Shown: positions 13,622-37,375 of the stretch, in pieces
How positions within the stretch are numbered: the stretch's first letter is position 1
How the letters are laid out: each line of letters begins with the position of its first letter
Assembly (NCBI GenBank): GCA_045597005.1
Contig: JAZODJ010000026.1
Coordinates: 60,263 to 124,262 of the forward strand
Length of the DNA: 64,000 bases
Direction: 5' to 3'
Source: Alphaproteobacteria bacterium
GTDB taxonomy: Bacteria > Pseudomonadota > Alphaproteobacteria > RF32 > CAG-239
Notes under the pieces: generated by a model
Database searches by the model: none
What the model was told of the DNA's origin: nothing
The model's input: the letters and a program-made list of their open reading frames with translations, nothing else
Program-made: the position numbers and the translations under genes

Positions 13622-14908
13622 TTATAACATATTTTCCAATCTTTTTTTATCAGCACTGCTTATTTTTAACTTAAAGAAAATTAAATCATCATTTATTTCA
13701 CTACTTAATACTTCACAATTTCGATATATCCACGATATTTTTTTACCATCAGCAACACTGACTTTAATATCCGTAATTTCACTATTAATCGATAATTTGT
13801 CATCTATCAAAGACAAAAGCTTATCACAATTTTCTCCCGTAATTGCTGAAACTGCTATTTTTCCGGGCTTTAAGTTAATTAAAATGTCTTTCTTTTTATC
13901 TTCACTCAACTCATCTATTTTATTAAACACTTCAATATATCTGGGCGAATTTTCAAAATCATTAAATCCTAAATCTTCTAAAACTGTCAAAACATCTTTA
14001 CGCTGTTCTCTTGAATTTTCAGATGCAATATCTCGTATATGTACAATCAAATCAGCAGACATAACTTCTTCCAAAGTCGCTCTGAAAGACATCACTAATT
14101 CATGTGGTAAATCCGAAATAAATCCTACCGTATCAGACAAAATAACCTCTCTTCCGGAAGGAAGTTTTATCTTACGCATTGAAGGATCTAATGTTGCAAA
14201 CAGCAAATCTTTTGCAAAAACATTACTGTTTGATAATTTGTTAAACAATGTAGATTTTCCGGCATTTGTATACCCAACAAAAGCTACCGATGCATAAGGA
14301 ACTCTTTTTCTTGCCGATCGCTGAATTTGCCTCGTTTGTTTTACTTTTTCCAAATTTTGCTTAATCTTTAATATTTTTTCATCAATAATTCGACGATCCA
14401 ATTCTATCTGAGTTTCACCCGGACCACCCAAAAAACCGGCACCTCCACGTTGACGCTCCAAGTGCGTCCAACTTCTTACCAATCGACTGCGCTGATATGT
14501 AAGATGCGCCAACTCAACCTGCATTTTACCTTCTTTGGTTTTTGCTCTCTCCCCAAAAATTTCCAGTATCAACGCTGTTCGATCAATAACTTTAACTTGT
14601 AACTTTTTTTCTAAATTACGTTGCTGAATAGGTGTTAAAGATGTATCAAATACAATCAATTCGACATTCTGCAACTCAATTACATCTTTTAATCTGTCAA
14701 TAACACCTTGTCCGATCAATGTTGCCGGCTTTACATTGCGAACATTCACAATTTCTTTATAAACAACATCCAAATCTATCGCTATAGCTAAACCAATCGC
14801 CTCTCGCAATCTGGCCTCAGCCGAAAGCGAAACACCCTGCCCATAGACATCAGGGAACACGACCGCTGTCTTGGTCGCAATATTTTTATTAAATTCTACA
14901 AATGACAA
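13622..14908 (-). CDS. hflX: GTPase HflX
   Basis: G-domain motifs (GYTNAGKST, DTVGF, NKID) and the HflX N-terminal domain. Lies immediately downstream of hfq. Confidence 0.9.
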   Translation of the reverse strand: MSFVEFNKNIATKTAVVFPDVYGQGVSLSAEARLREAIGLAIAIDLDVVYKEIVNVRNVKPATLIGQGVIDRLKDVIELQNVELIVFDTSLTPIQQRNLEKKLQVKVIDRTALILEIFGERAKTKEGKMQVELAHLTYQRSRLVRSWTHLERQRGGAGFLGGPGETQIELDRRIIDEKILKIKQNLEKVKQTRQIQRSARKRVPYASVAFVGYTNAGKSTLFNKLSNSNVFAKDLLFATLDPSMRKIKLPSGREVILSDTVGFISDLPHELVMSFRATLEEVMSADLIVHIRDIASENSREQRKDVLTVLEDLGFNDFENSPRYIEVFNKIDELSEDKKKDILINLKPGKIAVSAITGENCDKLLSLIDDKLSINSEITDIKVSVADGKKISWIYRNCEVLSSEINDDLIFFKLKISSADKKRLENML

Positions 14909-14913
14909 TTTTA

Positions 14914-15120
14914 TTAAATTTCAACAGCTTCACCAGGCATAATTGTTGATATGGCGTGTTTGTAAACCAACTGAGTATGCCCGTCCCTACGCAACAACAA
15001 CATTGCATCATCAAAAAAAGTTATAATACCTTGCAATTTCACACCGTTTACTAAAAAAACAGTAACAGAAATTTCATCATTTTTTAATTTTTCCAGAAAA
15101 TCCGTTTTATTTTCACTCAT
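14914..15120 (-). CDS. hfq: RNA chaperone Hfq
   Basis: Sm-like motifs ([22 protein letters not shown]). 68 aa. Confidence 0.9.
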
Positions 15121-15192
15121 AGACGTTTCCTTTTTTTGTTATTATTTATAGAATATATACTAATAACATTTTTTTATTTATGTCAAAGACTT

Positions 15193-16548
15193 TTAACAAA
15201 AAATCTGTTCTGCCTGCTTAATCATTGAAGAATCAACATAAGCCAAAATTGTATCACCAACTTCTAATTTGGTTGTAATATTGGGAAAAATCAATTCATC
15301 CCCTCGCAACAACCCAATCACTCTACACATTTTTGGCAAATTCAGTTCTCCGATTTTTCTTCTTCCGCATGCTGTATTTTCATCCAACTTAACTTCCCAA
15401 ATTTCCCCCATTCCTCGAGCTATAGAATAAGCTTCTTGCAACCTAGCTTTTCGAATCTCTTTTAAGATTTTAGAAATTGTAATTGCACTTCTATCAACCA
15501 AAATATTGTCTGTAATATTAAACATCAGATTATTATATGATGGTGTATTAATAACGGATATTGTTGTCCCCACACCATTTTTAGAAGCTAACAATGAAGC
15601 CAACAAATTATCTTTATCATATTCCGTTAACGCAATCGCCGCATCAGCCGAACTTATATTAGCCTCTTTTAAAATAACATCACTCATCATTTCACCATGT
15701 ATCACAACTACTTGATTCAACTTTCGAGCCAACATCCGCGCTTTGTTTAAATCTTCTTCAATCAATCGACAAGAAACAACACTATCATCATTTTCTATCT
15801 GATTTCCCATATATTCAGAAATCTCATTTCCACCAAAAATAACCAATCGCTCATTTGCCGGTTTTTCTAAACCGAATTCCGATATAACATTATAAATTTC
15901 ATCAGCCTTAACTAAAACATTAATTTGATCATCTGCCTGCAATGTCTCATACATATCAGGTAAAAAACTTTTATTATTGCGAATAATATTAATAAACGTC
16001 ATATCTAATTCGCTGTTTTTTAACAATTCAGCCAACTGAACATTCAACAACGGACAATTTTCATTTACGTTTAATGTCAGAATATAATATTGTTCATTAA
16101 AAACCGGCAAAATTCCGGCACACCCCGGATATTGTAATATTTTCAAAATTTGTTCGGCAATATCAATTTCCGGTGAAATTAACAAATCTATGGGCAAATG
16201 CTTGTCATTATAAAGCATTCCCCACAAAGGATCTGTGAATGTTTGACTGTTAACACTGGCAATTTTTTTAGGAATTGCAAACAACGTATACGCTAACTGG
16301 CAAATAACCATATTTACCTCATCAACACCCGTAACAGCCACTATCATATCACAATCTTTTGCGCCGGCTTTTTCCAAAATATCCGGATGTGAAGGTTTCC
16401 CTTGAATTGGCAACACATCAAACTCCTTTGACAATTCATCCAAATCTCGCTGATTATTGTCAATTACCACAATATCGTTGTTACCTTTAACCAAATAACT
16501 TACAACACTTTTACCAACTTGTCCCGCACCGCAAACGATAATTTTCAT
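15193..16548 (-). CDS. trkA: Trk potassium-uptake system, NAD-binding protein TrkA
   Basis: Two Rossmann GxGxxG motifs (GAGQVGKS and GGNEISEY) and RCK_C domains. 451 aa. Confidence 0.85.
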   Translation of the reverse strand: MKIIVCGAGQVGKSVVSYLVKGNNDIVVIDNNQRDLDELSKEFDVLPIQGKPSHPDILEKAGAKDCDMIVAVTGVDEVNMVICQLAYTLFAIPKKIASVNSQTFTDPLWGMLYNDKHLPIDLLISPEIDIAEQILKILQYPGCAGILPVFNEQYYILTLNVNENCPLLNVQLAELLKNSELDMTFINIIRNNKSFLPDMYETLQADDQINVLVKADEIYNVISEFGLEKPANERLVIFGGNEISEYMGNQIENDDSVVSCRLIEEDLNKARMLARKLNQVVVIHGEMMSDVILKEANISSADAAIALTEYDKDNLLASLLASKNGVGTTISVINTPSYNNLMFNITDNILVDRSAITISKILKEIRKARLQEAYSIARGMGEIWEVKLDENTACGRRKIGELNLPKMCRVIGLLRGDELIFPNITTKLEVGDTILAYVDSSMIKQAEQIFC

Positions 16549-16549
16549 C

Positions 16550-17530
16550 TCAGTTTATCCCTTCTTGTTGCAAAATTACTTCATCAAAAAACGCATTTAT
16601 TTCCTCTAATGCACATTCCATATCATTAATTCTGACATATTTTTCTCTAAAACGTCTGGCATCTCTAAAATTTTTACAATACCAACAAACATATTTTCGA
16701 GATAATGCAAGCGCCAACTTTTTACCATAATAATCTTCTAACCAACTTATATGTTTCAGCAAAGTTTCTTTTATAAGGGTAATCGAAATATTTTTAGAAT
16801 ATTCACCATATTCTAAAAAATTATGAACCTGCGCAATTAACCAGGGTCTTCCCAATGTAGCACGCCCCAACATAACCCCGTCAACTTTAGTATAATCAAT
16901 CATTTCTTTTGCTTTTTCAGGAGTATCAATATCTCCATTACCGACAACAGGTATTTTAACAGCCTGTTTAACTTCTGCTATAATATCCCAATCCGCAATT
17001 CCCGCATAAAAATCCGATCTTGTTCTACCATGAACAGTTATATATTCAGCCCCGCAATTTTCACACATTTTTGCAAAATCAACAGCATTAATGCTATTAT
17101 GATCCCACCCTTTTCTAAATTTAACACTAACAGGAAGATTGGTATATTTTTTCACGGTTTCTATAATTTGTGCAGCTAACCTGGTATCTTTCATTAAATA
17201 AGAACCGGAATTATTAGATACAATTTTTTTTACGGGACACCCCATATTTATATCTATTGAAAAAGCTCCCAATTCTTCAGCTAATTTAGCCGCATCAGCA
17301 AACAACTCTGGCGTACTTCCGACCAATTGAACCACAACAGGATAATTTTCATCTCTGACATCTGCTATTTTATATGTTTTTGGATTTTTACGGGACAACG
17401 CATTTATTGCAACCATTTCCGAAACAATATTACCTCCACCGAAAGAATGAACCAATTTTCGCATGGGTTTATCTGTAATACCTGCCATCGGAGCCAAAAA
17501 AACTCTACTGTCTAATCCTTTTATAAACAT
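16550..17530 (-). CDS. dusB: tRNA-dihydrouridine synthase B
   Basis: Dus family TIM barrel (LAPMAGITD, INMGCP). 326 aa. Confidence 0.85.
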   Translation of the reverse strand: MFIKGLDSRVFLAPMAGITDKPMRKLVHSFGGGNIVSEMVAINALSRKNPKTYKIADVRDENYPVVVQLVGSTPELFADAAKLAEELGAFSIDINMGCPVKKIVSNNSGSYLMKDTRLAAQIIETVKKYTNLPVSVKFRKGWDHNSINAVDFAKMCENCGAEYITVHGRTRSDFYAGIADWDIIAEVKQAVKIPVVGNGDIDTPEKAKEMIDYTKVDGVMLGRATLGRPWLIAQVHNFLEYGEYSKNISITLIKETLLKHISWLEDYYGKKLALALSRKYVCWYCKNFRDARRFREKYVRINDMECALEEINAFFDEVILQQEGIN

Positions 17531-17866
17531 TTATACCTTAAAGTCAAATTCACGATTATTCTTAAATACTAATCCCTCAACAACTGTTGATGAATTATCA
17601 ACTTTACTGTTATTTTGATACGTTTCCGCTACATATTCGCTATTTGCAGGCACATTCTGTCCGATTAGCGAATAAGCTGCTTTTGCATCAACCAGATTAT
17701 AACTTTGATCCTCAACTGACGAAACCGTTCGCAAAGTAATTTCATAAACTTCCGCCCCAAACCTTGGCGTTTCACCTTGCTTTTTTTGCACAATTTTAGA
17801 AGCCAAACGTCCTATCTGTTTTTGCAAACTGTTTATATAGTCATTATTTACAGATGATTTTGTCAC
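17531..17866 (-). CDS. Hypothetical protein
   Basis: ORF of 111 aa wedged between the giant ORF and dusB. Confidence 0.45.
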   Translation of the reverse strand: MTKSSVNNDYINSLQKQIGRLASKIVQKKQGETPRFGAEVYEITLRTVSSVEDQSYNLVDAKAAYSLIGQNVPANSEYVAETYQNNSKVDNSSTVVEGLVFKNNREFDFKV

Positions 17867-17880
17867 GCCAAGTCAAACCC

Positions 17881-20800
17881 TTAATTTAGTTTATTTAATG
17901 CTCTTGCCAAAACATAATAAAGACGTCCCATATCAGCTCCTGAAATAACAGCCATCAAAGCCGCCGAATGTTCATGAGACTTAGATTTTTCTACCAAAGT
18001 TTCAAATTCTTTCATATATGTATCAACTAATTTTCGTAATTCATCATTCTTTTCAAATTCTTTACGCAAAGCACTAATTTGTGAATTACTCATATTTTTG
18101 GCAACAGATCTGATAAATACTTGAGTATCACCATTATAAAACTTCTTCCATAAATCTTCTTCATCACGCGGTTTTAACAACCTGTTTACATCCACAGAAA
18201 CACTTTCTAAAACACTTATAATTTTTGCTGCATCTTTCAAAAATGTATCAACTTTAACATCTTTATATACCGTTGACAAACCTTTCATAACCTTTTCGGC
18301 TTTATTGGCCGTATCGGTAAGTGTTTTGGTTTGTATCGTTACAGTATCATTAAATCTAATACTTTCTTTAACAATATTTTGTCCTTGGGTTTCAAAAGCC
18401 TTTCCTGCATCCACTAAATCAGATAAACTCTTATTAACCTTATCTGCAGTATTGTCAGCCATTGCTGTCAAAGCTTGAGATTGTTTTACAAAAACATCTC
18501 CTGATGACAAAATACTATTAGAAATTCTTTCGGCATTAGCAGCCACTTCATTAAGCGTTGCTCTCAGCCTATCACCTGATTTTTCCATATGAGTAGCACT
18601 TAGCTTTACAGCATCGTCCATTTCTATTCCTAGTTTTTTCAAATCCTGTCCCAAACTTCTGACTTTATCATATGCATCATTAGCCCTGTCGGCCAATTTA
18701 TTAGATGTATCATTCAAAACAGTATTAAAACAATCTACTAACTTTTTGGTATCTTCTGATATTTGAACCATTTTATTGCTTTGAACTGAAATCAAATTAT
18801 TTATTTCAACCACTCCGGTAGATGTTTCTGCCGTAATAGTATTAAAACCGGCCAAATATTTTTCATATTCATTAAATACACCATTAATATTTTCAACAGA
18901 ATGAAATATTGTTGTATCTAAATCCTCACTACACTGATTCAAACGCAAACTTGTCTGATCAATATTTTTTATAGAATCTTTTGCTGCTTTACTAATTGCA
19001 TCACAAGCTTTCAATAATCTGTCACCCAAAACATCAAATTCATATGACAATTTTGTTGTTGTATCAAAAATATTACCGGTATTTTCTTTAAAATTAGTAT
19101 TAATTTCTTGCATTTTAGTCGCAACATCAACAGTTGCATCTGTCAAATACTTAAATTGTTGCGCAAATGATGCTTCTCCTAACCTTGCTTGCGTAGCTAA
19201 AGTATTAATTACTTCAGTAATATTATTCTTTTGCACTTCAAGCATGTGTGCAATACCTTCACCTTGTGAAATCATCTTTAAACCGGTGTTTTCCATATAT
19301 TTTGTTTGTTCATTAAATTTTTGCCATGTTGTCTCGTTTTCTTCCAACAAATCTTTTTGAATCTCTGACAAACGCGACGATGTATCTGAAATTTCTTGCA
19401 ATGTTTCTCCGGCACTAATTTTCATTGTTGAAATTGCAGTATTAAAATCATCCAAATTAAGCTTTACAACATCCACAACACTATTTAACTTAGTAATCGC
19501 ATCTTCAACAGTTTGTATTGTTAATTCGTGTTTAGCCGTCAAGAGTTTTTCAATTTCAGCTAATTCTTTAATTGATTTTTGTGAGTTTGCCACAACAGTT
19601 TCAGCTTTATGCCCTGTATCCTCCTCCAAAATTGTCAAACGAGCAAACAATTTATCGGCTCCCTCTTCTATTCCCGTCATCTGTTTTCTCAAAATTTCAG
19701 ACATTCGATTTGTATTTTCTGAAACTTTCTCACAATAAGTGTTAAAATCTGCTTCTTGTTGACGGAATAACAAATTAATCGTAGCAATCTTATTATCTAA
19801 ACCGGATACCGTATCTGTAATATATTCGGCAGCAACCTTTGATATATCATTAACCATATCGCTCTTAGCTGCAAAATCAGATATCGATTTATTCAAAACA
19901 GCTTCAGATGTTGTGGTAACTTCGTTAAGTTTCTTAATGTGTTTATCTAAATCATTACCTATTTTTTCGTTTTTATCTTCAATATTACTCGTCAATACTT
20001 CCATTGATTGCGACTGTTTAATTAAAATATTTTCAAATTGAGCAACTTTTGCCATTGTCCTGTTCGCTGAAGTATCAAACTGATTGGCCTGTTCAAGCAA
20101 ATTATCATTAATGGTTTTACTTTTATTAATGGCATCATTACATTGCGTTAACATCTTAGCTATATTTGATTTCAAAACTTCCAAAATATTAGCTGCATCT
20201 TTTTCTAAAGTCTCTGATGCTGTTGACAATTCATCAATTTGACGTTTCAATTCATTCTTAATATCTTCAACATGAGCAGCTGTATCGGTAATATGTTTTT
20301 GTTGTTGAGCTAAAGATGCTTCACTTATCTGACTTTGTGTAACAACTATCGATGATGCTTCAGTTAAACTGTTTGTATGTTTATTCATCAACGATGCAAC
20401 CTTATTTATACTCTCTATCGATTGAGCCGTTTGTACCATCATATTTTCGGTAGAAGCATTTATTCCTTTATCAACTTCCGCTAACTGATTCAAATTTCCT
20501 GCAATATTTTTTTGTAAAGTACTATAGCGATTATTCAAAACATCCGTAAGTCCAACAAGTTTATCAATACTATTACCACTTAACTTACCAAATTCATCAA
20601 CTTTCATATTCAAACTATTAATATATGATACAATATCATCATTAGCAATCGAAACCTTATCATCTAAATAGTTTACACTCTCTGCCAAAGATGTTTCCAC
20701 ACTTTGCATTGCTGTAACAGCTTTATCGGAAACGTTCGTAAGATTCGCTACTTGCATAGCAACGGAATCCTCCAAATTAGAGGTTCTGACCATAATCTTA

Positions 20801-22071
20801 TCCAACTCTTGAGCAATATTTTCACCGAACGCCGCAAATTTTTTATTAACTCCATCTGCCCGTTCATCCAAAACTTTTACAAAAGCGATAATATCTTTAT
20901 TATGCTTAGTCAACGACTCTTCAATCTTTTGAATTTGCAAATCCACTACATTATCAACATCATCAAAACCTTTTTTTATGTTATTATTGATAATACCAAC
21001 ATTAGATATTGCTGTTTTTGTAATATCTTCCGTTTTATCTTTCATCTCTTTGGTTGCTTTCTCTAAAACCAACGTTAATTTTTGACTGTGATTATGTAAC
21101 ACATCTTCCATATCCGCAATTTCTTTAGCCACGGTTGTCTTTGCTAAATCACAGTTTGTCATAGCTAAATCAGCCACCTGTTTCAGTGAATTTGCTTGTC
21201 CGACCAAAACTGTTTGCATTTCACCTAAAGTACTGTTTGTTTTTTCGGCAATAAGTTTTAAACTATCATTTGCTTTTACCATATCAATAGTTGAACCATT
21301 GGTTACTTCTCTTAACAAAACAGCAGTATCATTAATTTCCTTAACTTTTGGCAAAAGTTTATCAAATAATGTCATCAAAGACTTTTCAATACCGTTACTG
21401 TCATCCATAAACTCTTTGTTTAACTGAGCAAACCTTTGACTTGATACTTGTGTCTTATTCAACATATTATCAAAATTAGCCATTAAAAATTTAACACCAT
21501 CACTAAGTTCCACAATCGTTTTGGTTGAATAATTATCTAATTTTCCTACTAATTTGGCAAAATCATCCACGTTGTTTTTTATAGCATCTTTAATTTGTGA
21601 TGTTTGTTCATGAGCCAATTTTGAAACCTGTTGCAATTCAACAACTTGCGAACGGATTGCATCAGCCATTGCTTTCGCGGTCTGGGGAGCACCGTCTTCA
21701 GGATAAACCAGCTGATTCATATATGCGCGTAAAAACTTTGCCTCTTGCTTAAAAGATGTTCCGCGGTCAATATAAGCCATAACAACCCAAATAATTGCTA
21801 AAGGCAATGTAACACCAGCCAAAAAACCACCAAATTCATCAGGCATCATCAAAAACAAATTTGACCACCCAAAAAATTGAGTTATATAAATCAATACAAT
21901 AGCAAACCAAACAATACTTACACTAACCATCAACTTGTGTAAATTAGTATTTAGCCAAGATTGCTTTTCTTCTATTTCAATTGAATTTTGATAATTATTG
22001 TTTTCATTCATAAACTGCGGTAAAACTGTAACCTTACCGTTATCAGCTGTTTTATCAGACATCTGAAACAT
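17881..22071 (-). CDS. Giant membrane-anchored alpha-helical/coiled-coil protein of 1396 aa
   Basis: A short N-terminal cytoplasmic segment is followed by two hydrophobic helices (residues about 47-100). The remaining roughly 1250 aa are heptad-like and hydrophilic, rich in N/K/E/Q/L and without enzymatic motifs. Confidence 0.6.
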   Translation of the reverse strand: MFQMSDKTADNGKVTVLPQFMNENNNYQNSIEIEEKQSWLNTNLHKLMVSVSIVWFAIVLIYITQFFGWSNLFLMMPDEFGGFLAGVTLPLAIIWVVMAYIDRGTSFKQEAKFLRAYMNQLVYPEDGAPQTAKAMADAIRSQVVELQQVSKLAHEQTSQIKDAIKNNVDDFAKLVGKLDNYSTKTIVELSDGVKFLMANFDNMLNKTQVSSQRFAQLNKEFMDDSNGIEKSLMTLFDKLLPKVKEINDTAVLLREVTNGSTIDMVKANDSLKLIAEKTNSTLGEMQTVLVGQANSLKQVADLAMTNCDLAKTTVAKEIADMEDVLHNHSQKLTLVLEKATKEMKDKTEDITKTAISNVGIINNNIKKGFDDVDNVVDLQIQKIEESLTKHNKDIIAFVKVLDERADGVNKKFAAFGENIAQELDKIMVRTSNLEDSVAMQVANLTNVSDKAVTAMQSVETSLAESVNYLDDKVSIANDDIVSYINSLNMKVDEFGKLSGNSIDKLVGLTDVLNNRYSTLQKNIAGNLNQLAEVDKGINASTENMMVQTAQSIESINKVASLMNKHTNSLTEASSIVVTQSQISEASLAQQQKHITDTAAHVEDIKNELKRQIDELSTASETLEKDAANILEVLKSNIAKMLTQCNDAINKSKTINDNLLEQANQFDTSANRTMAKVAQFENILIKQSQSMEVLTSNIEDKNEKIGNDLDKHIKKLNEVTTTSEAVLNKSISDFAAKSDMVNDISKVAAEYITDTVSGLDNKIATINLLFRQQEADFNTYCEKVSENTNRMSEILRKQMTGIEEGADKLFARLTILEEDTGHKAETVVANSQKSIKELAEIEKLLTAKHELTIQTVEDAITKLNSVVDVVKLNLDDFNTAISTMKISAGETLQEISDTSSRLSEIQKDLLEENETTWQKFNEQTKYMENTGLKMISQGEGIAHMLEVQKNNITEVINTLATQARLGEASFAQQFKYLTDATVDVATKMQEINTNFKENTGNIFDTTTKLSYEFDVLGDRLLKACDAISKAAKDSIKNIDQTSLRLNQCSEDLDTTIFHSVENINGVFNEYEKYLAGFNTITAETSTGVVEINNLISVQSNKMVQISEDTKKLVDCFNTVLNDTSNKLADRANDAYDKVRSLGQDLKKLGIEMDDAVKLSATHMEKSGDRLRATLNEVAANAERISNSILSSGDVFVKQSQALTAMADNTADKVNKSLSDLVDAGKAFETQGQNIVKESIRFNDTVTIQTKTLTDTANKAEKVMKGLSTVYKDVKVDTFLKDAAKIISVLESVSVDVNRLLKPRDEEDLWKKFYNGDTQVFIRSVAKNMSNSQISALRKEFEKNDELRKLVDTYMKEFETLVEKSKSHEHSAALMAVISGADMGRLYYVLARALNKLN

Positions 22072-22195
22072 TCCCCATAAATAAAAAAAATCCCCATAGC
22101 TTTAAAACAAAAGCCATGAGGCATTATAAGCATATTTTTTAAAATTGGAAACACTATTAAATATCTATGGACGTTTATCCACAAACTTTATTCAC

Positions 22196-22375
22196 TTAAT
22201 TTTTTTCTTCTTTCTTCAATACATAAATCAATTTTTGCATAGCTCGTGTTTTCATCTCACTTTCACTCAAATTTGCAGGAAGAACCACAACCGCCTCTAT
22301 AGCCGTATTTGGTTCAATTGCAGTAACTTTTACCACATTTCCTTGTTTTACAAATTCAAACAAAACCTCAGACAT
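22196..22375 (-). CDS. Small ORF of 59 aa (MSEVLFEFVKQGNVVKVTAIEPNTAIEAVVVLPANLSESEMKTRAMQKLIYVLKKEEKN) lying 5 nt downstream of parC
   Basis: My own translation. It is not in the ORF track because it is under 60 aa. It is tightly coupled to the parC stop. Confidence 0.35.
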   Translation of the reverse strand: MSEVLFEFVKQGNVVKVTAIEPNTAIEAVVVLPANLSESEMKTRAMQKLIYVLKKEEKN

Positions 22376-22380
22376 AACCG

Positions 22381-24603
22381 CTACTTCAAAAATTTATTTG
22401 TTTTTGCAAATCCGAACGGTGCCAATTTTCCGACTTGCGCACGATGCCCCAACCATGTAATCAAATCTTTTTCAATACTGATACCGCCCGATCTGTTATA
22501 GCTGAACCCGTCTTCCTCTTTAAATATTTGAATATCACTTAAGCCACCGTCTTTATATTTCTGCAAACAAACACCATGACCGCGAGCCATTGTCGGCACT
22601 TCTTCAAGTTTAAACACTAATATTTTGCGATTATCACCGATTGTTGCCACCATATCACCGACAATTTTTTTACAGAACATCGTTTTTTCACCTTCGGCAA
22701 CATTCATAATTTTACGTCCTTGTCTGGTTTGTGCTACCAAATGATTCTCATCGACAATAAAACCATAACCCTTATTAGATGCAATCAAATATGATGCTTT
22801 TGGCTCAAAAACAAACATATCCGTAATAGTATCATTGTTCCCAACATCAACCATCAATCTCAGTGGTTGTCCGAAACCTCTACCTGAGGGAATATCACAA
22901 GCATTAATATTAAAAAACTTTCCGGATGAATCAAACAAAACTATCTTATCCGTCGTTTGCGCATGAATAGCCAATAACAAACCGTCATCATCCTTAAATT
23001 TAAATTCGTCCGTCAATGAAACATATCCTTTCATACAACGAATCCATCCTTTTTCAGACAAAATAACGGTTATCGGTTCTTTTTCAACCAATGCTTCCAT
23101 TGATATATCTATGCTTTCCAAATCAACTTCGGCAAATTCAGTTCTCCGACGCCCCAATGCTGTTTTTTTACCAAATTTTTCTTTAATTGCTTTGATTTCC
23201 TCAGCAACTTTTTGCCAACGCAAATTTTCATCAGACATCAGCTTATCAAGTTCTTCTTTTTCTGAAGTCAAATCATCATATTCTTTTCTGATATCAGCTT
23301 CTTCCAATTTTCGAAGGTTTCTCAATTTCATATTCAAAATTGATTCAGCCTGAATTTCACTCAAGTTAAAAGTAACCATCATCTTATTTTTAGGATCATC
23401 ATCCTCACGAATAATTCTGATAATTTCATCCAGATTTAAATAAGCAATCAAATAACCTGATAAAATTTCAAGCCTGTTAATAATTTTTTGCAAACGATGG
23501 TTCGTGCGTCTTTCCAAAACTTTGATACGATGATTTAAAAATTCTCTCAAAACTTCGGCAATACTCATAACTCTGGGAACACCGTCTGAATCCAACACAT
23601 TCATATTCATATTAAATTTGGATTCAAGCTCTGTATTTTTAAACAAAAGTTCCATCAACATATTAGCGTCAACATTTCGATTTTTCGGTTCCAAAACAAT
23701 ACGAACATCTTGAGCTGATTCATCTCTGACATCATTTAACAGAGGAACTTTCTTTTCTTGCAACAACAGAGCAATTCTTTCAATAAGCTTGGACTTAACC
23801 ACTTGATATGGTATCTCACTAACTACAATTTGATACTGCCCCATTCCAAGGTCTTCTTTTTCCCATTTTGCTCTAACCCTGAAATTTCCTTTTCCTGTTG
23901 TATAGGCATCTAAAATCGTAGCAAATTTATCAACAATGATTCCGCCGGTAGGAAAATCAGGACCTTTTAATTTTCTGACCAAACTTTCAATTGTTGCATC
24001 AGGCTTCTCAATCATCAAAAGTAAAGCATCACAAACCTCAGACAAATTATGAGGCGGAATATTAGTTGCCATACCCACAGCAATACCGTTTGACCCGTTG
24101 CATAACAAGTTAGGTACCGCCCCAGGCATTACAACCGGTTCTTGCTCCTCTCCATCATAAGTATCTCTGAAATCAACGGCATCTTCATTCAAACCTTCCA
24201 TCAAAGCAATGGCATATTCGGTTAATCTGGCCTCGGTATAACGCATTGCAGCCGGGCTATCACCGTCTATATTACCAAAGTTACCCTGTCCGTCTACAAG
24301 CGGATAGCGCACCGAAAAATCTTGTGCCAACCGACACATCGCCCCATAAACGGAACTATCACCATGAGGATGATATTTACCGATAACATCACCGACAACA
24401 CGTGCGCATTTCTTAAAACCTGACTTAGGATCCAGATGGAGTTGTCTCATCGCATACATCAAACGACGATGTACCGGCTTTAATCCGTCTCTGACATCCG
24501 GAAGAGAACGAGACACAATTGTCGACATCGCATACGACAAATAACGACTACTTAATTCTTCCGCCAATGCAACTGTTTTTATTTTTTCTTCTATCTCAGC
24601 CAT
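22381..24603 (-). CDS. parC: DNA topoisomerase IV subunit A
   Basis: GyrA/ParC N-terminal domain with the active-site region ...[10 protein letters not shown].... The 740-aa length and short C-terminal domain fit ParC better than GyrA. Confidence 0.85.
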
Positions 24604-29816: not shown

Positions 29817-31268
29817 TTATTTCATATCTTTTTGGTTTTGACCTTGTTCTACATAGGTTTCAACCTGACGAGCTGCTTTTTTGGCCAAAGCTATACATCC
29901 CGGACCGGCAATACAACCGCCCTCACAACACATAACTTCAATCATATTATTTTCACACCCTTTTGTAGCATAGCGTTTCAATAATTTGATATTTTCTTTA
30001 CTCAAACCATCGATTCTTTCCGGTCTGAAATCAACCTTTCCTTCAACCAAATTACCAACCGCAGCGGCAACACCGCCGGACAGCGGATATTTACGTGCTT
30101 GTGCTGACGAAACTTTTGCAAATTCTGTCGGTTCACAATCACCGATTTCGATTCCGGCACCGACAAACATTGCTCCGATTTCTTCAAATGTCAAAACATA
30201 ATCAACATTAGGATCATATTCGGCCTCTGTACGTTTTGCCAAACAAGGACCTACAAACACGGAAATACAATCCGGTTGCTCTTTTTTAAGCATCTCAGCC
30301 GTATAATACATCGGCGTTTTCGTATTTGATACATACTCTTTTAATTCCGGAATATGAACTTGTGCCGCTCTGTAATAAGCCGGACAACAAGAAGTTGTCA
30401 TAAATTTAGCACCTTCTTCCATACGCTCAATAAATTCTGCCGATTCATTTGTTGATGTAATATCAGCACCGGCTGCAACCTCAACAACATCAGCAAATCC
30501 GGCTTTTTTCAAAGCTCCGACAACTTGTTTCAATTCAAACGGAAACTGTCCGACAACCGCAGGAGCAAGCATTGCCACGACTTTTTTGTCACTATTGTGT
30601 ATCAAATTTAATACATCAACTAATTGCGAACGTTCTACAATCGCTCCAAAAGGACAAGATTGCAAACATTTACCGCAAGAAATACAAGCTTCTTCATCAA
30701 TATGTTCAACCCCGTTCTCATCTTTTCTGATTGCACCTACAGGACAAGCTTCTTCACAAGGAACCGGCAACTTAACAATTGCATGATACGGACAGACTTC
30801 CATACATTTTCCGCAAGAAACACACATATCAGGATCTATATGAGATTTTCCGTTTACAAACGAAATAGCTTGCTTTGGACAATTCATAACACACGGACGA
30901 GCAAAACACCCTCTGCACGCATCAGTAACCATATATTGCGACTTAACACATGCCGAACATGCAATATCAATTACCGACAAACAACTTTTAGCATGATTTT
31001 GACGTTTTAACGCTTGTTTGCCATACTCACGCAACGTTGTAACCTCGCTAACTTCTTCTTGAGGTGTAATTCCCATAGCAGCCATAAGACGATACTTCAA
31101 AATGGCTCTATCTTTATAAATACAACAACGGCTTGAATCATAGTCCTTAGGACGCATCTCTATAGGAATCTCATCCGCTGTTTCAAAACGATCTTTATAA
31201 AAACTTTCAACAACCTTAACCAGAATTCTTGTGCGCATCTGGTTTGCATAATTCTTAGGTATTAACAA
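29817..31268 (-). CDS. [FeFe]-hydrogenase-like protein (HfsD-like) with N-terminal multi-[4Fe-4S] ferredoxin domains and an atypical H-cluster domain
   Basis: Several CxxCxxCxxxCP clusters. H-domain motifs TTSCCPAY (L1), GPCLAKRTE (L2) and EVMCCEGGCIAGPG (L3). L3 deviates from the canonical MACPGGC. Confidence 0.75.
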   Translation of the reverse strand: MLIPKNYANQMRTRILVKVVESFYKDRFETADEIPIEMRPKDYDSSRCCIYKDRAILKYRLMAAMGITPQEEVSEVTTLREYGKQALKRQNHAKSCLSVIDIACSACVKSQYMVTDACRGCFARPCVMNCPKQAISFVNGKSHIDPDMCVSCGKCMEVCPYHAIVKLPVPCEEACPVGAIRKDENGVEHIDEEACISCGKCLQSCPFGAIVERSQLVDVLNLIHNSDKKVVAMLAPAVVGQFPFELKQVVGALKKAGFADVVEVAAGADITSTNESAEFIERMEEGAKFMTTSCCPAYYRAAQVHIPELKEYVSNTKTPMYYTAEMLKKEQPDCISVFVGPCLAKRTEAEYDPNVDYVLTFEEIGAMFVGAGIEIGDCEPTEFAKVSSAQARKYPLSGGVAAAVGNLVEGKVDFRPERIDGLSKENIKLLKRYATKGCENNMIEVMCCEGGCIAGPGCIALAKKAARQVETYVEQGQNQKDMK

Positions 31269-31553: not shown

Positions 31554-32732
31554 TTAAACATATTTAACGCTTATCTCTTTTAAGAATTTGCTTTGCAGAA
31601 TTCTAAAAATCTTTTTAACAATATTTCTGCGAATGTCAAGCTCCATCGGCAAATTTGGATCCTGATGAGCTTCATTTATTTTTGTTCCGACAACAAAATC
31701 AATTTTATCTGAATCCAACAACAATCTGGTCAATCTGGTTGCTGCGTTATCTTTGTCTTCGTCAAGACCTTCTTTCAACATCCGATAAACATCCGTCAGA
31801 GTAAGAATTCCTTCTGTTACCAAATCAATTCCTGGCATTATTGATGCCATAGGTATATTAGGATCAAAGGTTGTTTTATCCATTTCACACTTCAGACAAA
31901 GCTCTCTTTCAATAATATTTGCCGTAGTACCGCCGCAAATTGCCGTTTTTCCATCATAATAATCTATCATTTCAGCAATCTCTTTGTCTTTTTCCTCATC
32001 AAACGGCGGACCACTCAACAACAACAATTTTCTGGGCTTTCTAAAATAAACAACCGTACAACTTATATCATCTCCGGCCTTTCCTTCGGGTTCTTTTGAA
32101 AGTGCCTCATGAACTATAGCTTCAGCTAAATCTGTTGCAGAAATATGCGGATGACGTCTTATTTGATTTTCAATAAACTTCCACACACCTTCCCGTTGCC
32201 ACCCTAACGGATATTTAGGATTTCCCAATCCTGCTTGTGTAACTCCGTCAGACATAATTATGATTCTGTCTTCTTCTTGAGCTAAAAATTGGTAAACATT
32301 TATAATTCTATCTTTCCAATTTTCAGCCGTAATTTCATGATGAGCCGGACAATATTGCTGAAAATCTCTGACAATAAAACACCCCGGATTATCCATTTCA
32401 TAAATTCTTGTTTTTCCTTCGAGCATTGCATCAATTATTGAAAAAGTTGCATAGCTTATTTTTCTTACCTGACAAACAGGCAAGGCTTGCATCATCACTT
32501 CGGCCGAACGAACCAAATCCAAATCACTCTCAACAAACTTAATTGCCATTCTTGATGTCATTGAAGACAAAATATTTGCTTTTACTCCGCTTCCCAAACC
32601 ATCAGACAAAACTGTTATTATACGCTGCTCTTCCGGCAATTTTTTCGATGCTACCGAATCACCAAAACAATTCTCACTATATTTATGTTCTTGATGTGAG
32701 CCTATTTCAATATAAAGAGAATCGCTCATCAA
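31554..32732 (-). CDS. SpoIIE/PP2C-family serine phosphatase (HfsC-like) with an additional C-terminal domain
   Basis: PP2C motifs (VLSDGLGSG, MSDGVTQAG, GDDISCTV). Overlaps the hydS stop by 4 nt. Confidence 0.7.
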   Translation of the reverse strand: MMSDSLYIEIGSHQEHKYSENCFGDSVASKKLPEEQRIITVLSDGLGSGVKANILSSMTSRMAIKFVESDLDLVRSAEVMMQALPVCQVRKISYATFSIIDAMLEGKTRIYEMDNPGCFIVRDFQQYCPAHHEITAENWKDRIINVYQFLAQEEDRIIIMSDGVTQAGLGNPKYPLGWQREGVWKFIENQIRRHPHISATDLAEAIVHEALSKEPEGKAGDDISCTVVYFRKPRKLLLLSGPPFDEEKDKEIAEMIDYYDGKTAICGGTTANIIERELCLKCEMDKTTFDPNIPMASIMPGIDLVTEGILTLTDVYRMLKEGLDEDKDNAATRLTRLLLDSDKIDFVVGTKINEAHQDPNLPMELDIRRNIVKKIFRILQSKFLKEISVKYV

Positions 32733-34486
32733 CTATTCCTTCTGTTTCGAATCGTTATATTGGGTCTGTCTGTAACATCTCCGGCATAATCCTTTGCTAT
32801 AGAACGCAACAAAACCTCTGTTTCTGCCATATGTTCACCTAATGTACACGCAATTTGTTGTACCGTTGCCAAATTCTTTTCAATAACTTCTTTAGCCTTT
32901 TCTGCTATTTTTTCACGCTTAATTTCAACATTGGTAACATCTTCGATTACTCCGCCGACAACCTGTTTTTGCTCGATATTAAACACCATAACATCATAAA
33001 CTTTATCATTATGATGAGCATTTTCTCGTTTTACATCTTCACCCAAGTCCAACGAAGCAGAAAATAAATTTGTAAAACTTATAAAATCACGTAAATTAGC
33101 TCCGATTAAATTTCCTCTGTCATATATATCGGCATGTGCCTCATCATTCCAAAAAGCATCTAAAAATTGTTCATTATACTCTATAATTGAAAGCTTTGAA
33201 TTTACAATTACAATAGGAGACGGAATACATTTCAACAATGCATTGGCCTTGCGCTGAGCCTGATGTTTGATATGCGACACACACATATCAATTTCAGCCT
33301 TTCCATCCAAAATAGCCTTTGCAAAATTTCTACAATTATCATATCCGCAAGCATTACAATTTATCTCATCTTCTATTGTATGTTTACCTAAAATTTTCAA
33401 CACTCTTTTTATTTGTTCTTCATCATATATTTTACTTACAACAGGGGCATTCTTATATTCACAAGTTATATCAATTTCATTTTTTCTTTTTCCGGTATTT
33501 TTGGAAATTTTAACATCATTCAACACTCTGGCTCTTTTTTCAAATCCTGATTTATGACCTCTGGTGCAAGGTCCGTTTACACACCCTCCTTCACAAGCCA
33601 AACATTCTATAAACACCGGATTTTTAGGATGCGTCCCTTTAATATCAGATAATTCCCTTTGAATATTATCCAAACCTGTTAACTGCATCATATAAACGTG
33701 ATCGGTCTTTTTATAACGCTTTATTGTTTCAATCATTCCTCCTTCAATAGGATAATAGCGTCCCTCTTCCGCATTTTTATAAATAAAATCAATTCCTTTT
33801 CGAGGTTCAATATTATGATAATTAATACCGGCCTCACGGAACCATCTGCGCAAATCCCTAAAAGAGATACTTAAATTTAACAAATTACCGTTTCTATCTG
33901 CTTCAAACTTCTTTGCAATACAAGGACCTACAAAAACAATCTTTATATTTTTTCCCAGTTTTTCTCTCATTAATTTACAATGAGCCAACAAAGGCGATAC
34001 AACCGGTGTCAAATTTTCAGTCAACTCCGGCATATATTTATTAATATATTCCACAAAAGACGGACATGCCGTTGAAAGATATATGCCATTTGTTTTATCT
34101 GACAAAAAATCAGCCAAATGTGCCGAAACTTCTTCTGCCCCTACAGCTGTTTCACTAACACCTGAAAAACCTAACTTTTCAATTGCCGTAAGCAGTTGTT
34201 CTTTTGTAACATTATCAAATTCTGCTATCCATGAAGGCGCTAATGATACATAAATTTTTTCGCCGGTTGCCAACATATTTTTAGCTCTTGTAACATCATC
34301 TCTATCTTGTTTTGCTCTTACCGGACAAACTTTATAGCACGTACCGCAAGCAACGCATAATTCAGGCACTATTTGTGCCGAATTATCTTCAATTTTTATT
34401 GCTTTTACCGGACATCTTCTTACACACTTATAACAATCCTGACAATTATTTTTAACCGTAAACAACGGATGAATTCTGCTGGACAT
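32729..34486 (-). CDS. hydS: Putative sensory [FeFe]-hydrogenase (HydS/HfsB-like): two N-terminal [4Fe-4S] motifs, an H-cluster domain and a C-terminal PAS domain
   Basis: CxxCxxCxxxCP twice. L1 is STACPSF, with one Cys replaced as in HydS. L2 is GPCIAKKFE and L3 is ECLACEGGCVNGP. The C-terminal roughly 130 aa are PAS-like. Confidence 0.75.
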   Translation of the reverse strand: MSSRIHPLFTVKNNCQDCYKCVRRCPVKAIKIEDNSAQIVPELCVACGTCYKVCPVRAKQDRDDVTRAKNMLATGEKIYVSLAPSWIAEFDNVTKEQLLTAIEKLGFSGVSETAVGAEEVSAHLADFLSDKTNGIYLSTACPSFVEYINKYMPELTENLTPVVSPLLAHCKLMREKLGKNIKIVFVGPCIAKKFEADRNGNLLNLSISFRDLRRWFREAGINYHNIEPRKGIDFIYKNAEEGRYYPIEGGMIETIKRYKKTDHVYMMQLTGLDNIQRELSDIKGTHPKNPVFIECLACEGGCVNGPCTRGHKSGFEKRARVLNDVKISKNTGKRKNEIDITCEYKNAPVVSKIYDEEQIKRVLKILGKHTIEDEINCNACGYDNCRNFAKAILDGKAEIDMCVSHIKHQAQRKANALLKCIPSPIVIVNSKLSIIEYNEQFLDAFWNDEAHADIYDRGNLIGANLRDFISFTNLFSASLDLGEDVKRENAHHNDKVYDVMVFNIEQKQVVGGVIEDVTNVEIKREKIAEKAKEVIEKNLATVQQIACTLGEHMAETEVLLRSIAKDYAGDVTDRPNITIRNRRNS

Positions 34487-34780: not shown

Positions 34781-37375
34781 CTATATTTTTCCGTTAAAAG
34801 CATCAAGATAAATTTTTCTTATATCTTCCATTAACGGATAAACAGGATTTGCACCGGTGCATTGATCATCAAAAGCATTCTCAACCAACCAATCCAGTTT
34901 GGCTTCAAAATCTTTTTTACTTATACCCCAGTCTTTAATAGATGCCGGAATATCAACTTCTTTTTTCAAAGCTTCAATAGCTTCAATTAAAGCATCGATT
35001 TTCTCATCTTCCGTTTTACCTTTCAAATTCAAATTATTTGCAATTTGAGCATAACGTCTTTTAGCTTCCGGCATTTTATATTGCGGGAAAATTGCCTGCT
35101 TGCGCGGACAATCGGTAGCATTATACTTAATAACCTGATTAATCAATAATGCATTAGCAATACCATGCGGAATATTAAATGCAGCCCCCAATTTATGTGC
35201 CATTGAATGACACAATCCCAAGAAAGAGTTTGCAAATGCCATACCGGCAATTGTAGCTGCGTGATGCATTTTCTCTCTTGCTTTCGGGTCATTAGCACCT
35301 TCTTTATATGCTCTCGGCAAATATCTGAATACTTGCTTAATGGCTTCTAAAGCTGTCGAATTAGTAAAGTTTGTAGCCATAACCGACACATAAGCTTCAA
35401 TAGCATGAACCAATGCGTCAATTCCACCTGCCGAAGTCAAACCTTTAGGCATATTATCAACAAAATTTGCATCAATAATAGCCATATTCGGTGTCAATGC
35501 ATAATCAGCCAACGCATATTTTACATGTGTTTCGTCATCTGTAATAACAGCAAAAGGTGTAACTTCAGATCCTGTTCCTGACGTCGTTGGAATAGCCACC
35601 ATAGAAGCCTTTTTACCCAATTCACCGATAGTACAAATACGTTTTCTGATGTCCATAAAACGCATTGCCACATCTTCAAATGCGATTTCCGGTTTTTCAT
35701 ATTTAAGCCACATAACCTTAGCAGCATCCATCGGAGAACCGCCACCGAATGAAATAAATACATCCGGCTTAAACACATTAATCATAACAAGAGCTTCTTC
35801 AATAGTAGCTATTGTCGGATCTGGTTTAACATCAAAGAAAATTTGATATTCAATATCCATATCTTCCAGTACATTGGTAATAGCATTAACCATACCGGAA
35901 TCAAATAAATATCTATCCGTAACAATAAAAGCCCTTTTCTTTCCTTCTAATTCTCTCAAAGCAACATCCGTTGCTCCGCGCTTAAAATAAATTTTTGGTG
36001 GAACTCTGAACCACAACATATTTTCTCTCCTCTCGGCAACGGTTTTATAGTTTAACAAATGTTTTACACCAACATTTTCACTCACTGAGTTGCCTCCCCA
36101 TGATCCGCAACCCAATGTTAATGACGGCTCCAATCTAAAGTTAAACAAATCTCCTATACCTCCTTGAGATGAAGGAGAGTTAATTAATAAACGACCTGTA
36201 GGCAATTTTGTCGCAAAATAATCAACTCGATCTTGTTTGCGAGTATCCGTATAAAGCACAGATGTATGCCCCATTCCGCCAAGTTCTACCAAAGCCAAAG
36301 CCTTATCAACAGCTTTTTCAAAATCATCAGCTTTATACAAAGTCAAAATCGGAGACAATTTTTCATGAGCAAACGGATTTGTTACATCAACTGATGTTTG
36401 TTCTGACAACAATACCTTTGAATATTCCGGAACGGAAATCCCTGCCATTTTAGCAATTTTTACTGCAGGTTGACCTACTATTTCCGGATTAACACCTTTC
36501 GGCGTTAATATAATTTTAGCCAACTTATCAGCTTCTTTTGCTGTTAACAAATACGCACCGCGACGCACAAATTCCTGCTTAACTTTTTCATAAACGGATT
36601 TAATGGCTATAACAGATTGTTCCGAAGCGCAAATCATTCCATTGTCAAAAGTCTTAGACATCAATATATACGATACAGCCATTTCCAAATCAGCTGTTTC
36701 ATCAATAACGGCCGGAGTATTTCCCGCACCGACACCTAATGCCGGTTTTCCTGATGAATATGCAGCCTTTACCATACCGGGACCGCCTGTCGCTAAAATT
36801 CCATGAACATCAGGATGTTTCATCAACATGTCTGTAAGCTCCAAAGACGGCTCATCAATCCATCCTATAATATTTTCCGGAGCACCTGCTTTAACAGCTG
36901 CTTCATAAACAACTTTAGCTGCTTCGATTGTTGATTTTTTAGCTCGTGGATGTGGTGAAAAAATAATTGCATTACGTGTCTTCAAACAAATAAGTGATTT
37001 AAATATAGCCGTAGATGTCGGATTTGTTGTCGGTATAACACCGGCAACGATTCCCAAAGGTTCTGCCACAATCTTAATTCCGTTTGTCTTATCAGATTTT
37101 ATAATACCGCATGTTTTTTCATTTTTGTATTTATTGTATATATATTCTGACGCAAAATGGTTTTTAATAATTTTATCTTCAACAACACCCATTCCCGTAT
37201 CACTCGCCGCCATTTTAGCTAAAGGAATACGAGCCTTATCTGCTGCTGTAGCCGCAGCCTTAAAAATACGATTAATTTTATCCTGTTCAAACGTTGCAAA
37301 AACTCTTTGAGCCTCTTTAACTTTTTTTATCAAGGCTTCCAAATCTTTTACTGTTTTAACTTCTTTATTTGCCAT
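34781..37375 (-). CDS. adhE: Bifunctional aldehyde/alcohol dehydrogenase AdhE
   Basis: N-terminal ALDH domain with the catalytic Cys region. C-terminal Fe-ADH domain (GGGSPMDAAK, HxxxH). 864 aa. Confidence 0.92.
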   Translation of the reverse strand: MANKEVKTVKDLEALIKKVKEAQRVFATFEQDKINRIFKAAATAADKARIPLAKMAASDTGMGVVEDKIIKNHFASEYIYNKYKNEKTCGIIKSDKTNGIKIVAEPLGIVAGVIPTTNPTSTAIFKSLICLKTRNAIIFSPHPRAKKSTIEAAKVVYEAAVKAGAPENIIGWIDEPSLELTDMLMKHPDVHGILATGGPGMVKAAYSSGKPALGVGAGNTPAVIDETADLEMAVSYILMSKTFDNGMICASEQSVIAIKSVYEKVKQEFVRRGAYLLTAKEADKLAKIILTPKGVNPEIVGQPAVKIAKMAGISVPEYSKVLLSEQTSVDVTNPFAHEKLSPILTLYKADDFEKAVDKALALVELGGMGHTSVLYTDTRKQDRVDYFATKLPTGRLLINSPSSQGGIGDLFNFRLEPSLTLGCGSWGGNSVSENVGVKHLLNYKTVAERRENMLWFRVPPKIYFKRGATDVALRELEGKKRAFIVTDRYLFDSGMVNAITNVLEDMDIEYQIFFDVKPDPTIATIEEALVMINVFKPDVFISFGGGSPMDAAKVMWLKYEKPEIAFEDVAMRFMDIRKRICTIGELGKKASMVAIPTTSGTGSEVTPFAVITDDETHVKYALADYALTPNMAIIDANFVDNMPKGLTSAGGIDALVHAIEAYVSVMATNFTNSTALEAIKQVFRYLPRAYKEGANDPKAREKMHHAATIAGMAFANSFLGLCHSMAHKLGAAFNIPHGIANALLINQVIKYNATDCPRKQAIFPQYKMPEAKRRYAQIANNLNLKGKTEDEKIDALIEAIEALKKEVDIPASIKDWGISKKDFEAKLDWLVENAFDDQCTGANPVYPLMEDIRKIYLDAFNGKI

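Follow-up and report, generated by a model that had tools for sequence, protein, structure and literature searches.

The giant gene and its locus

Within a 64,000-nucleotide (nt) stretch of an alphaproteobacterial contig (JAZODJ010000026.1, positions 60,263 to 124,262; hereafter the window), the minus strand carries an open reading frame (ORF) of 1396 codons at 17881..22071 with an uninterrupted translation. This giant gene encodes a membrane-anchored, largely helical protein whose two ends resemble those of the polar growth scaffolds GPR and RgsE. An earlier note, made from the DNA letters alone, had described a 4.2-kb ORF at these positions, which was confirmed as described, with the start corrected to 22062. 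The note had also placed the gene at the head of a dusB-trkA-hfq-hflX string; this arrangement was likewise found, with a 111-amino-acid (aa) ORF between the giant gene and dusB. The locus comprises the following features.

17881..22062, minus strand: giant-protein coding sequence, starting at ATG 22062 (1393 aa) and ending in the stop codon at 17881-17883; the mechanical ORF reaches ATG 22071
22071..22076, minus strand: Shine-Dalgarno sequence GGGGAA for ATG 22062
22092..22121, minus strand: hairpin of 12 base pairs followed by a U-run, between the -10 box and the ribosome-binding site
22123..22151, minus strand: promoter-like site TTTCCA-17 nt-TATAAT, conserved upstream of the gene in closer relatives
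22196..24603, minus strand: upstream unit of parC (22381-24603) and a 59-aa DUF6898 ORF (22196-22375)
17531..17866, minus strand: small companion ORF of 111 aa, starting 14 nt past the giant-gene stop and ending at the dusB start
13622..17530, minus strand: downstream string of dusB (16550-17530), trkA (15193-16548), hfq (14914-15120) and hflX (13622-14908)

The fourth codon of the ORF, ATG 22062, is probably the true start, which gives a product of 1393 aa. This codon is favored because the GGGGAA Shine-Dalgarno sequence is found 9 nt ahead of it but directly against the first ATG, because a 100% identical NCBI protein has 1393 aa (P0001, 'MAG: hypothetical protein E7017_00920, Alphaproteobacteria bacterium'), and because Met4 and Ser5 of the ORF are invariant in the family alignment. 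Residue numbers below follow the 1396-codon ORF, counted from ATG 22071. The commonest residues are L, K, A, N, T, S, V, D and E, at odds with the previous description of the protein as N/K/E/Q-rich. The note's statement that the protein lacks an enzymatic motif is supported by searches of Pfam, NCBIfam and PDB sequences, none of which returned an enzymatic family match.

The giant gene appears to have its own promoter and to head a tightly packed string, since the promoter-like site precedes it and the companion ORF, dusB, trkA, hfq and hflX are packed downstream. In the upstream unit, the DUF6898 ORF (E = 2.6e-21) starts 6 nt past the parC stop; its length is below that of the ORFs listed by default. 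The promoter-like site and the hairpin recur at the equivalent position in the related loci L001-L033, L054, L073 and L079. The stem sequence of the hairpin differs among closer relatives with its pairing kept, and its 3´ arm always closes with GGGGA(A)T, a copy of the ribosome-binding motif that follows 10-18 nt downstream. Folding z-scores of -2.4 to -5.2 were obtained in 11 of 12 leaders tested, and no Rfam family matched the leader region. The hairpin could be a terminator of the parC-DUF6898 unit that overlaps the next promoter, or a regulatory 5´ leader.

In many other Alphaproteobacteria, the gene order is nifR3-ntrBC-ntrYX-trkA-hfq-hflX, with ntrBC and ntrYX located between dusB (nifR3) and trkA. 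The proposal that the giant gene replaces ntr genes upstream of dusB does not hold, as the giant gene and the ntr slot flank dusB on opposite sides. Here, dusB is followed directly by trkA with a stop/start overlap (15193-17530, minus strand), and neither ntrBC nor ntrYX is found at that position. Because dusB abuts trkA, the ntr genes are simply absent rather than replaced. The Paracoccus locus tags of NifR3 (Pden_4131) and NtrX (Pden_4127) are consistent with ntr genes following nifR3 (PMC9409073).

Domain anatomy of the giant protein

The giant protein comprises an N-terminal membrane module, a long helical body and a C-terminal domain, which correspond to the following stretches.

21472..21960, minus strand: conserved N-terminal module of a transmembrane hairpin and juxtamembrane helices, ORF residues 38-200, very probably homologous to GPR 139-236
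21862..21933, minus strand: transmembrane helix 1, residues 47-70
21835..21861, minus strand: inter-helix loop NLFLMMPDE, invariant and without lysine or arginine, predicted periplasmic
21769..21834, minus strand: transmembrane helix 2, residues 80-101
18175..21684, minus strand: near-continuous amphipathic helical body, residues 130-1299 (~1170 residues), with a variable middle containing conserved islands
20416..21480, minus strand: apolipoprotein A-IV-like stretch, residues 198-552, detected with the family profile
20068..20604, minus strand: internal repeat copy A, residues 490-668, detected with hhalign
18910..19458, minus strand: internal repeat copy B, residues 872-1054, detected with hhalign
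17884..18237, minus strand: conserved C-terminal domain, residues 1279-1396, very probably homologous to the last ~115 residues of GPR

Two closely spaced N-terminal hydrophobic helices had been noticed before; the segments were located at residues 47-70 and 80-101 and are modelled as helices by AlphaFold2, in agreement with a membrane-anchored, largely helical protein. The 9-residue loop between them contains no lysine or arginine, compared with four such residues in the flank after the second helix, which predicts a cytoplasmic location of both termini. Conservation falls into distinct modules. Column identity is >= 0.9 at residues 51-150 across sequences that are only ~45% identical overall, and this block spans both membrane helices, the NLFLMMPDE loop and the segment YIDRG...LVYPE.... 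Residues 950-1200 and 1276-1396 are also well conserved, and the stretches at about 200-550 and 850-950 vary.

The two halves were modelled with AlphaFold2 (mean pLDDT, the predicted local distance difference test, of 66), and the models were read for secondary structure only because their predicted template modelling score (pTM) is 0.2-0.3. DSSP assignments on these models show a near-continuous helix with few short breaks from about residue 130 to 1299; fully extended, its 1170 residues would measure about 175 nm (0.15 nm per residue). The whole protein contains only seven prolines, at residues 18, 77, 90, 124, 129, 241 and 1301. Hydrophobic residues recur with a period of 3.55-3.6, not 3.5, in each window of 100 residues. 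Heptad windows account for 24% of the sequence windows versus 6.5% in shuffles, with register shifts every 40-60 residues, and the 3.6-period pattern is enriched more than heptads (17% versus 1.6% in shuffles). Because of this periodicity, the frequent register shifts and the stronger 3.6-period enrichment, the body consists of successive amphipathic helices, of the type seen in helical bundles or apolipoproteins, and not of a single canonical coiled coil. A long two-stranded coiled coil as the sole reading is ruled out by the periodicity and the register shifts. The 'heptad-like' helix of the earlier note is thus helical in the models and only partly heptad.

The earlier note had overlooked both the C-terminal domain, which is conserved, and the N-terminal module, whose conservation is unusually high. 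In the model, residues from about 1304 to 1393 fold into six short helices packed as a compact bundle, and the last 95-118 residues constitute a conserved multi-helix domain, not a coiled coil. Within the helical body, residues 490-668 match residues 872-1054 (hhalign probability 94-95%, E 1e-7 to 3e-8), which is an ancient internal duplication. The motif LTE..(V)..Q..(I/L)(S/G)EASLAQQ(Q/Y)K is common to both copies.

Conservation and taxonomic spread

A protein database search returned 204 homologues at E <= 1e-3. The best 120 of them share 41-100% identity, and their lengths centre on a median of 1393 aa (5th-95th percentile, 1331-1417). A scan with one genome per species found relatives in 149 GTDB species; the best 80 of these, with near full-length matches at 35-90% identity, were kept for comparison of the dusB locus, with flanks of up to 8 kb per locus. 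The giant gene is intact and directly upstream of dusB in all 80 loci. Wherever a related locus extends far enough, trkA and hflX lie downstream of dusB, and kdsA-recO-parC lie upstream of the giant gene in most loci. A chance ORF is ruled out by the 204 homologues, the relatives in 149 species and the 80 near full-length loci. A pseudogene or assembly artefact is ruled out by the intact gene in 80 independent assemblies. The doubt raised in the note, that frameshifts in better assemblies might disrupt the gene, falls on the same ground.

All 80 relatives are uncultured isolates or genomes assembled from metagenomes, sampled from humans, chickens, rabbits, sheep, deer and the rumen. Labels on some of them are Candidatus Scatocola, which NCBI places in Rhodospirillales incertae sedis, or 'Azospirillum sp.'. 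Also encoded in the window are two proteins like the large subunit of [FeFe]-hydrogenase, with a SpoIIE-type phosphatase between them, and the bifunctional aldehyde/alcohol dehydrogenase AdhE.

29817-31268, 32729-34486 and 34781-37375, minus strand: region of the [FeFe]-hydrogenase-like proteins, SpoIIE-type phosphatase and AdhE

The hydrogenase-like proteins and AdhE indicate an anaerobic, fermentative alphaproteobacterium rather than the endosymbiont assumed previously, and its relatives are gut and rumen alphaproteobacteria. A Pfam scan of 18 ORFs of the window revealed no cell-shape gene.

Both ends of the giant protein match GPR/RgsE

In Agrobacterium tumefaciens, the growth pole ring protein GPR (Atu1348, 2115 aa) carries an N-terminal pair of membrane helices, an uninterrupted helix of 1700 aa that is similar to apolipoprotein A-IV, and an essential C-terminus. 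Multiple PF01442 domains extend over about 75% of the protein, and proline-rich disordered regions are located near both termini. GPR without its last 221 residues is non-functional, and a 10-residue C-terminal deletion already impairs it. Its orthologue RgsE of Sinorhizobium meliloti (SMc00190, 2089 aa, 42% identity) is membrane-anchored and cytoplasmic, as verified by reporter fusions. RgsE binds TolQ, RgsA and RgsS in two-hybrid assays and works in the Rgs/Tol-Pal network of unipolar growth. The GPR/RgsE family is typical of unipolar growers that carry the other Rgs proteins and lack the MreB rod system.

The GPR sequence was machine-read from Fig. S3 of PMC8262873, which recovered 2099 of 2115 residues with a few errors. 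Bit scores were computed on segments of it (residues 91-300 or the last 150) with 1000 shuffles as controls. A C-terminal hidden Markov model (HMM) built from only 16 members of the gut clade matches GPR 1986-2098 at E = 1.7e-16 and 53.3 bits (best shuffle, 6.5 bits). When the profile was broadened with the distant members described below, GPR excluded, the last 150 residues of GPR scored 95-97 bits (best shuffle, 9.6). The N-terminal profile, broadened in the same manner and again without GPR, matches GPR 139-236, the second membrane helix and juxtamembrane segment, at 38.6-44.4 bits (best shuffle, 9.2). BLASTP aligns residues 1279-1396 with GPR 1983-2099 (23.5% identity, E = 1e-7) and residues 51-143 with GPR 105-203 (20% identity, E = 0.022), and the two matches are collinear. 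At the extreme C-terminus, RgsE ends in AAGRFS (read from a cloning primer) and GPR in AAGRFN, and distant members carry AAGK or AGRK there.

The giant protein is very probably homologous to GPR/RgsE. Both end modules match GPR at corresponding positions, which argues for membership of the GPR/RgsE family, and the protein appears from its sequence to be a distant, shorter scaffold of this family that lacks the proline-rich regions. It shares with GPR the juxtamembrane module, the C-terminal ~115-aa domain and a continuous helical stretch that exceeds 1000 residues and is weakly similar to apolipoprotein A-IV, and it shares with RgsE the architecture that GPR also has. In contrast to GPR, it is about 720 residues shorter, its gene is fixed upstream of dusB, and its host belongs to an anaerobic gut lineage outside Rhizobiales. 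The multiple PF01442 domains are a descriptive trait of GPR and not the basis of homology. Distant RgsE homologues were described previously in Rhodospirillales and Emcibacterales, and the gut clade fits and extends this description.

A wider family defined by its two end modules

Residues 1-1200 were searched exhaustively with phmmer against 1.84 billion representative proteins, with 513 matches; outside the close clade, most of these cover residues 48-180 only. An HMM of the last 132 residues matches the same distant proteins at their very C-terminal end (E 1e-17 to 1e-40). Since these residues lay outside the phmmer query, the two-ended architecture is independently supported, and the distant proteins are predicted to share the N-terminal membrane module, a helical spacer and the C-terminal domain. 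Proteins with both end modules range from 326 to 2208 aa, with spacers of about 60 to about 1900 residues. Hypothetical proteins from Roseospira visakhapatnamensis (1075 aa), Sphingomonas jatrophae (890 aa) and Polymorphobacter multimanifer (708 aa) are among them. Pfam and NCBIfam contain no model for either module. A C-terminal-domain profile searched against a word-indexed database returned short fragments only (77-236 aa) and no named full-length protein, and a full-length profile of distant members matched named Sphingomonadales proteins and not the Rhizobiales GPR. Neither the single giant protein nor the C-terminal domain profile matched any PDB sequence.

The gene neighborhoods of five distant members are unrelated to the dusB locus, so the link to dusB is clade-specific and has little bearing on function. 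In the 2208-aa distant member P0392 (L081:6001-12627), a proline-rich stretch lies just ahead of the C-terminal domain, as in GPR, and a gene for a pentapeptide-repeat protein (L081:12624-13757) overlaps the stop codon. The 708-aa member of Polymorphobacter multimanifer directly follows two CDP-alcohol phosphatidyltransferase genes of phospholipid synthesis (L084:3620-8127), which may be incidental.

Two points go beyond the literature consulted: the GPR/RgsE family is bounded by two conserved end modules without a Pfam model and has a highly variable spacer length, and it takes in a large uncultured clade of gut alphaproteobacteria with fixed length and gene position. In this gut clade, the length of the spacer-bearing protein is tightly constrained (1331-1417 aa). 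As a tentative proposal, the end modules may mark an ancient Alphaproteobacteria-wide family, in which membrane-docking and output domains are joined by a spacer of lineage-set length and which serves as a ruler or scaffold across growth modes, with the small, translationally coupled downstream ORF as a clade-specific partner; the odds are somewhat against this broad view.

A putative scaffold for envelope growth or division

By analogy with GPR and RgsE, the giant protein is likely to be an inner-membrane-anchored cytoplasmic scaffold for the envelope growth or division machinery. Following the GPR/RgsE literature, it would self-assemble at the membrane, forming a higher-order scaffold by which proteins of envelope growth or division are positioned. 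The N-terminal module, which is invariant, would dock to a conserved membrane partner together with its predicted periplasmic loop; RgsE interacts with TolQ, RgsA and RgsS. The C-terminal domain may provide an essential output or targeting function, in line with the effect of C-terminal deletions in GPR, and the helical body may serve as a spacer of clade-specific length with a lipid- or protein-binding surface.

Several observations weigh against this assignment. The N-terminal profile built from the gut clade only is marginal on GPR 91-300 (11.6 bits; best shuffle 12.5, with 1 of 1000 shuffles equalling it). Profile searches detected no specific similarity of the helical middle to GPR, and the middles of the two proteins are not alignable. 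Identity to GPR is ~20-24% and confined to the two ends, on which the transfer of function rests. Regions rich in proline like those near the GPR termini are absent from the giant protein, as its seven prolines indicate, and PF01442 domains of the GPR kind are not matched in it at the Pfam threshold. The AlphaFold2 half-models are low in global confidence (pTM 0.2-0.3). Relatives also occur in Sphingomonadales; Sphingomonadales and Rhodospirillales are not known to be unipolar growers, so a polar-growth role cannot be assumed. RgsE acts within the Rgs/Tol-Pal network of unipolar growth, in contrast to its distant homologues in Rhodospirillales and Emcibacterales, which occur without other Rgs proteins and for which the RgsE authors suggested a different role.

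Few organizers of unipolar growth are known; GPR/RgsE is one of them, and its mechanism is poorly understood. The comparison identifies the N-terminal membrane module and the C-terminal domain as the conserved core, to which experiments can be directed. These modules are common to much shorter and much longer proteins of gut alphaproteobacteria, Rhodospirillales and Sphingomonadales, and the role of the family may exceed polar growth. The assignment also gives a first functional handle on the 'hypothetical proteins' of this kind encoded by gut and rumen alphaproteobacteria, which number in the hundreds.

Apolipoprotein similarity and alternative roles

The family profile matches human apolipoprotein A-IV at E = 5e-8 for the full-length chain (residues 198-552 of the giant protein) and at 1e-8 for a shorter chain. 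Weaker matches are to ApoE, ApoA-I and apolipophorin III, beside designed helical bundles and chemoreceptors. PF01442 has no match at E <= 0.01 in the giant protein and one at this threshold in 1 of 16 family members; in a distant relative it reaches 30.9 bits, compared with the Pfam gathering cut-off of 90. Scattered PF01442, ApoLp-III, ATG17-like and other helical-family matches were observed in relatives, and those detailed fall below the Pfam thresholds. Because the apolipoprotein matches are weak and stand beside designed bundles and chemoreceptors, they may mirror composition and periodicity only. The apolipoprotein hallmark of GPR is thus seen in a weaker form, which may largely be a matter of amphipathic periodicity. 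The exchangeable apolipoproteins (human ApoA-IV, ApoE and ApoA-I; PF01442) resemble the giant protein in this profile match and in amphipathic helices of ~3.6 periodicity. However, the giant protein is membrane-anchored, three to five times longer and without proline-punctuated 11/22-residue repeats, and the similarity may be convergent.

These matches, including the sub-threshold ones in relatives, together with the 3.55-3.6 periodicity, would also suit an apolipoprotein-like lipid binder or membrane remodeller, such as a coat of lipid inclusions or a stabilizer of membrane domains, that has no role in positioning growth or division; the GPR authors themselves proposed lipid sequestration. 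Conservation peaks in the hairpin module and the C-terminal domain, however, and not in the amphipathic body, and loss of GPR mislocalises peptidoglycan synthesis. A purely lipid-binding role is therefore considered unlikely, although it deserves some weight.

A polarity landmark that marks the new pole after division, like TipN of Caulobacter crescentus, is improbable. TipN shares the gross architecture of the giant protein, with a pair of N-terminal membrane helices ahead of a long, helical cytoplasmic region, a likeness drawn from the general description of TipN and not from a comparison of sequences. TipN is shorter, none of the named relatives recovered is annotated as TipN (all are GPR-type or hypothetical), and both end modules of the giant protein match GPR. 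The earlier suggestion of a polar landmark or tether thus survives in kind, as the closest characterized relative is a polar morphogenetic scaffold; that relative is GPR/RgsE and not TipN.

The kdsA-recO-parC genes found upstream in most related loci might suggest a chromosome or nucleoid tether that is functionally tied to the adjacent parC and recO, and the top Foldseek matches are the coiled coils of Rad50 and MukB. These matches are non-significant (E > 0.1), and neither Pfam nor NCBIfam detects a DNA-binding domain or ABC ATPase heads of the SMC/Rad50/MukB type flanking the helical body. Moreover, insertions separate parC from the giant gene in several loci, the hairpin with its U-run and the separate promoter-like site divide the parC unit from the giant gene, and distant family members have unrelated neighbors. 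Such a tether is very improbable. The surface or secreted filamentous effector raised in the earlier note, which a large repetitive helical protein of a gut-associated lineage might bring to mind, can practically be dismissed, given the lack of a signal peptide and of any secretion-system domain in Pfam or NCBIfam, a hairpin topology with positive charges on the body side that predicts a cytoplasmic body, RgsE's location in the cytoplasm, and a fixed place among housekeeping genes (the same in 80 of 80 loci) with near-constant length across the clade.

The companion ORF downstream of the giant gene

The inner-membrane-anchored scaffold proposed here is accompanied in most loci by a small ORF in the slot between the giant gene and dusB. 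Among 20 loci examined, 16 carry a companion ORF of 111-195 aa with the common N-terminal motif L..(Q/E)I..SV..IK, which starts 10-25 nt after the giant-gene stop (for example, L015:12190-12522 and L036:12007-12567). It is absent in L013, L075, L078 and L080. No Pfam family matched the companion ORF, which evolves fast and may encode a partner protein of the giant protein.

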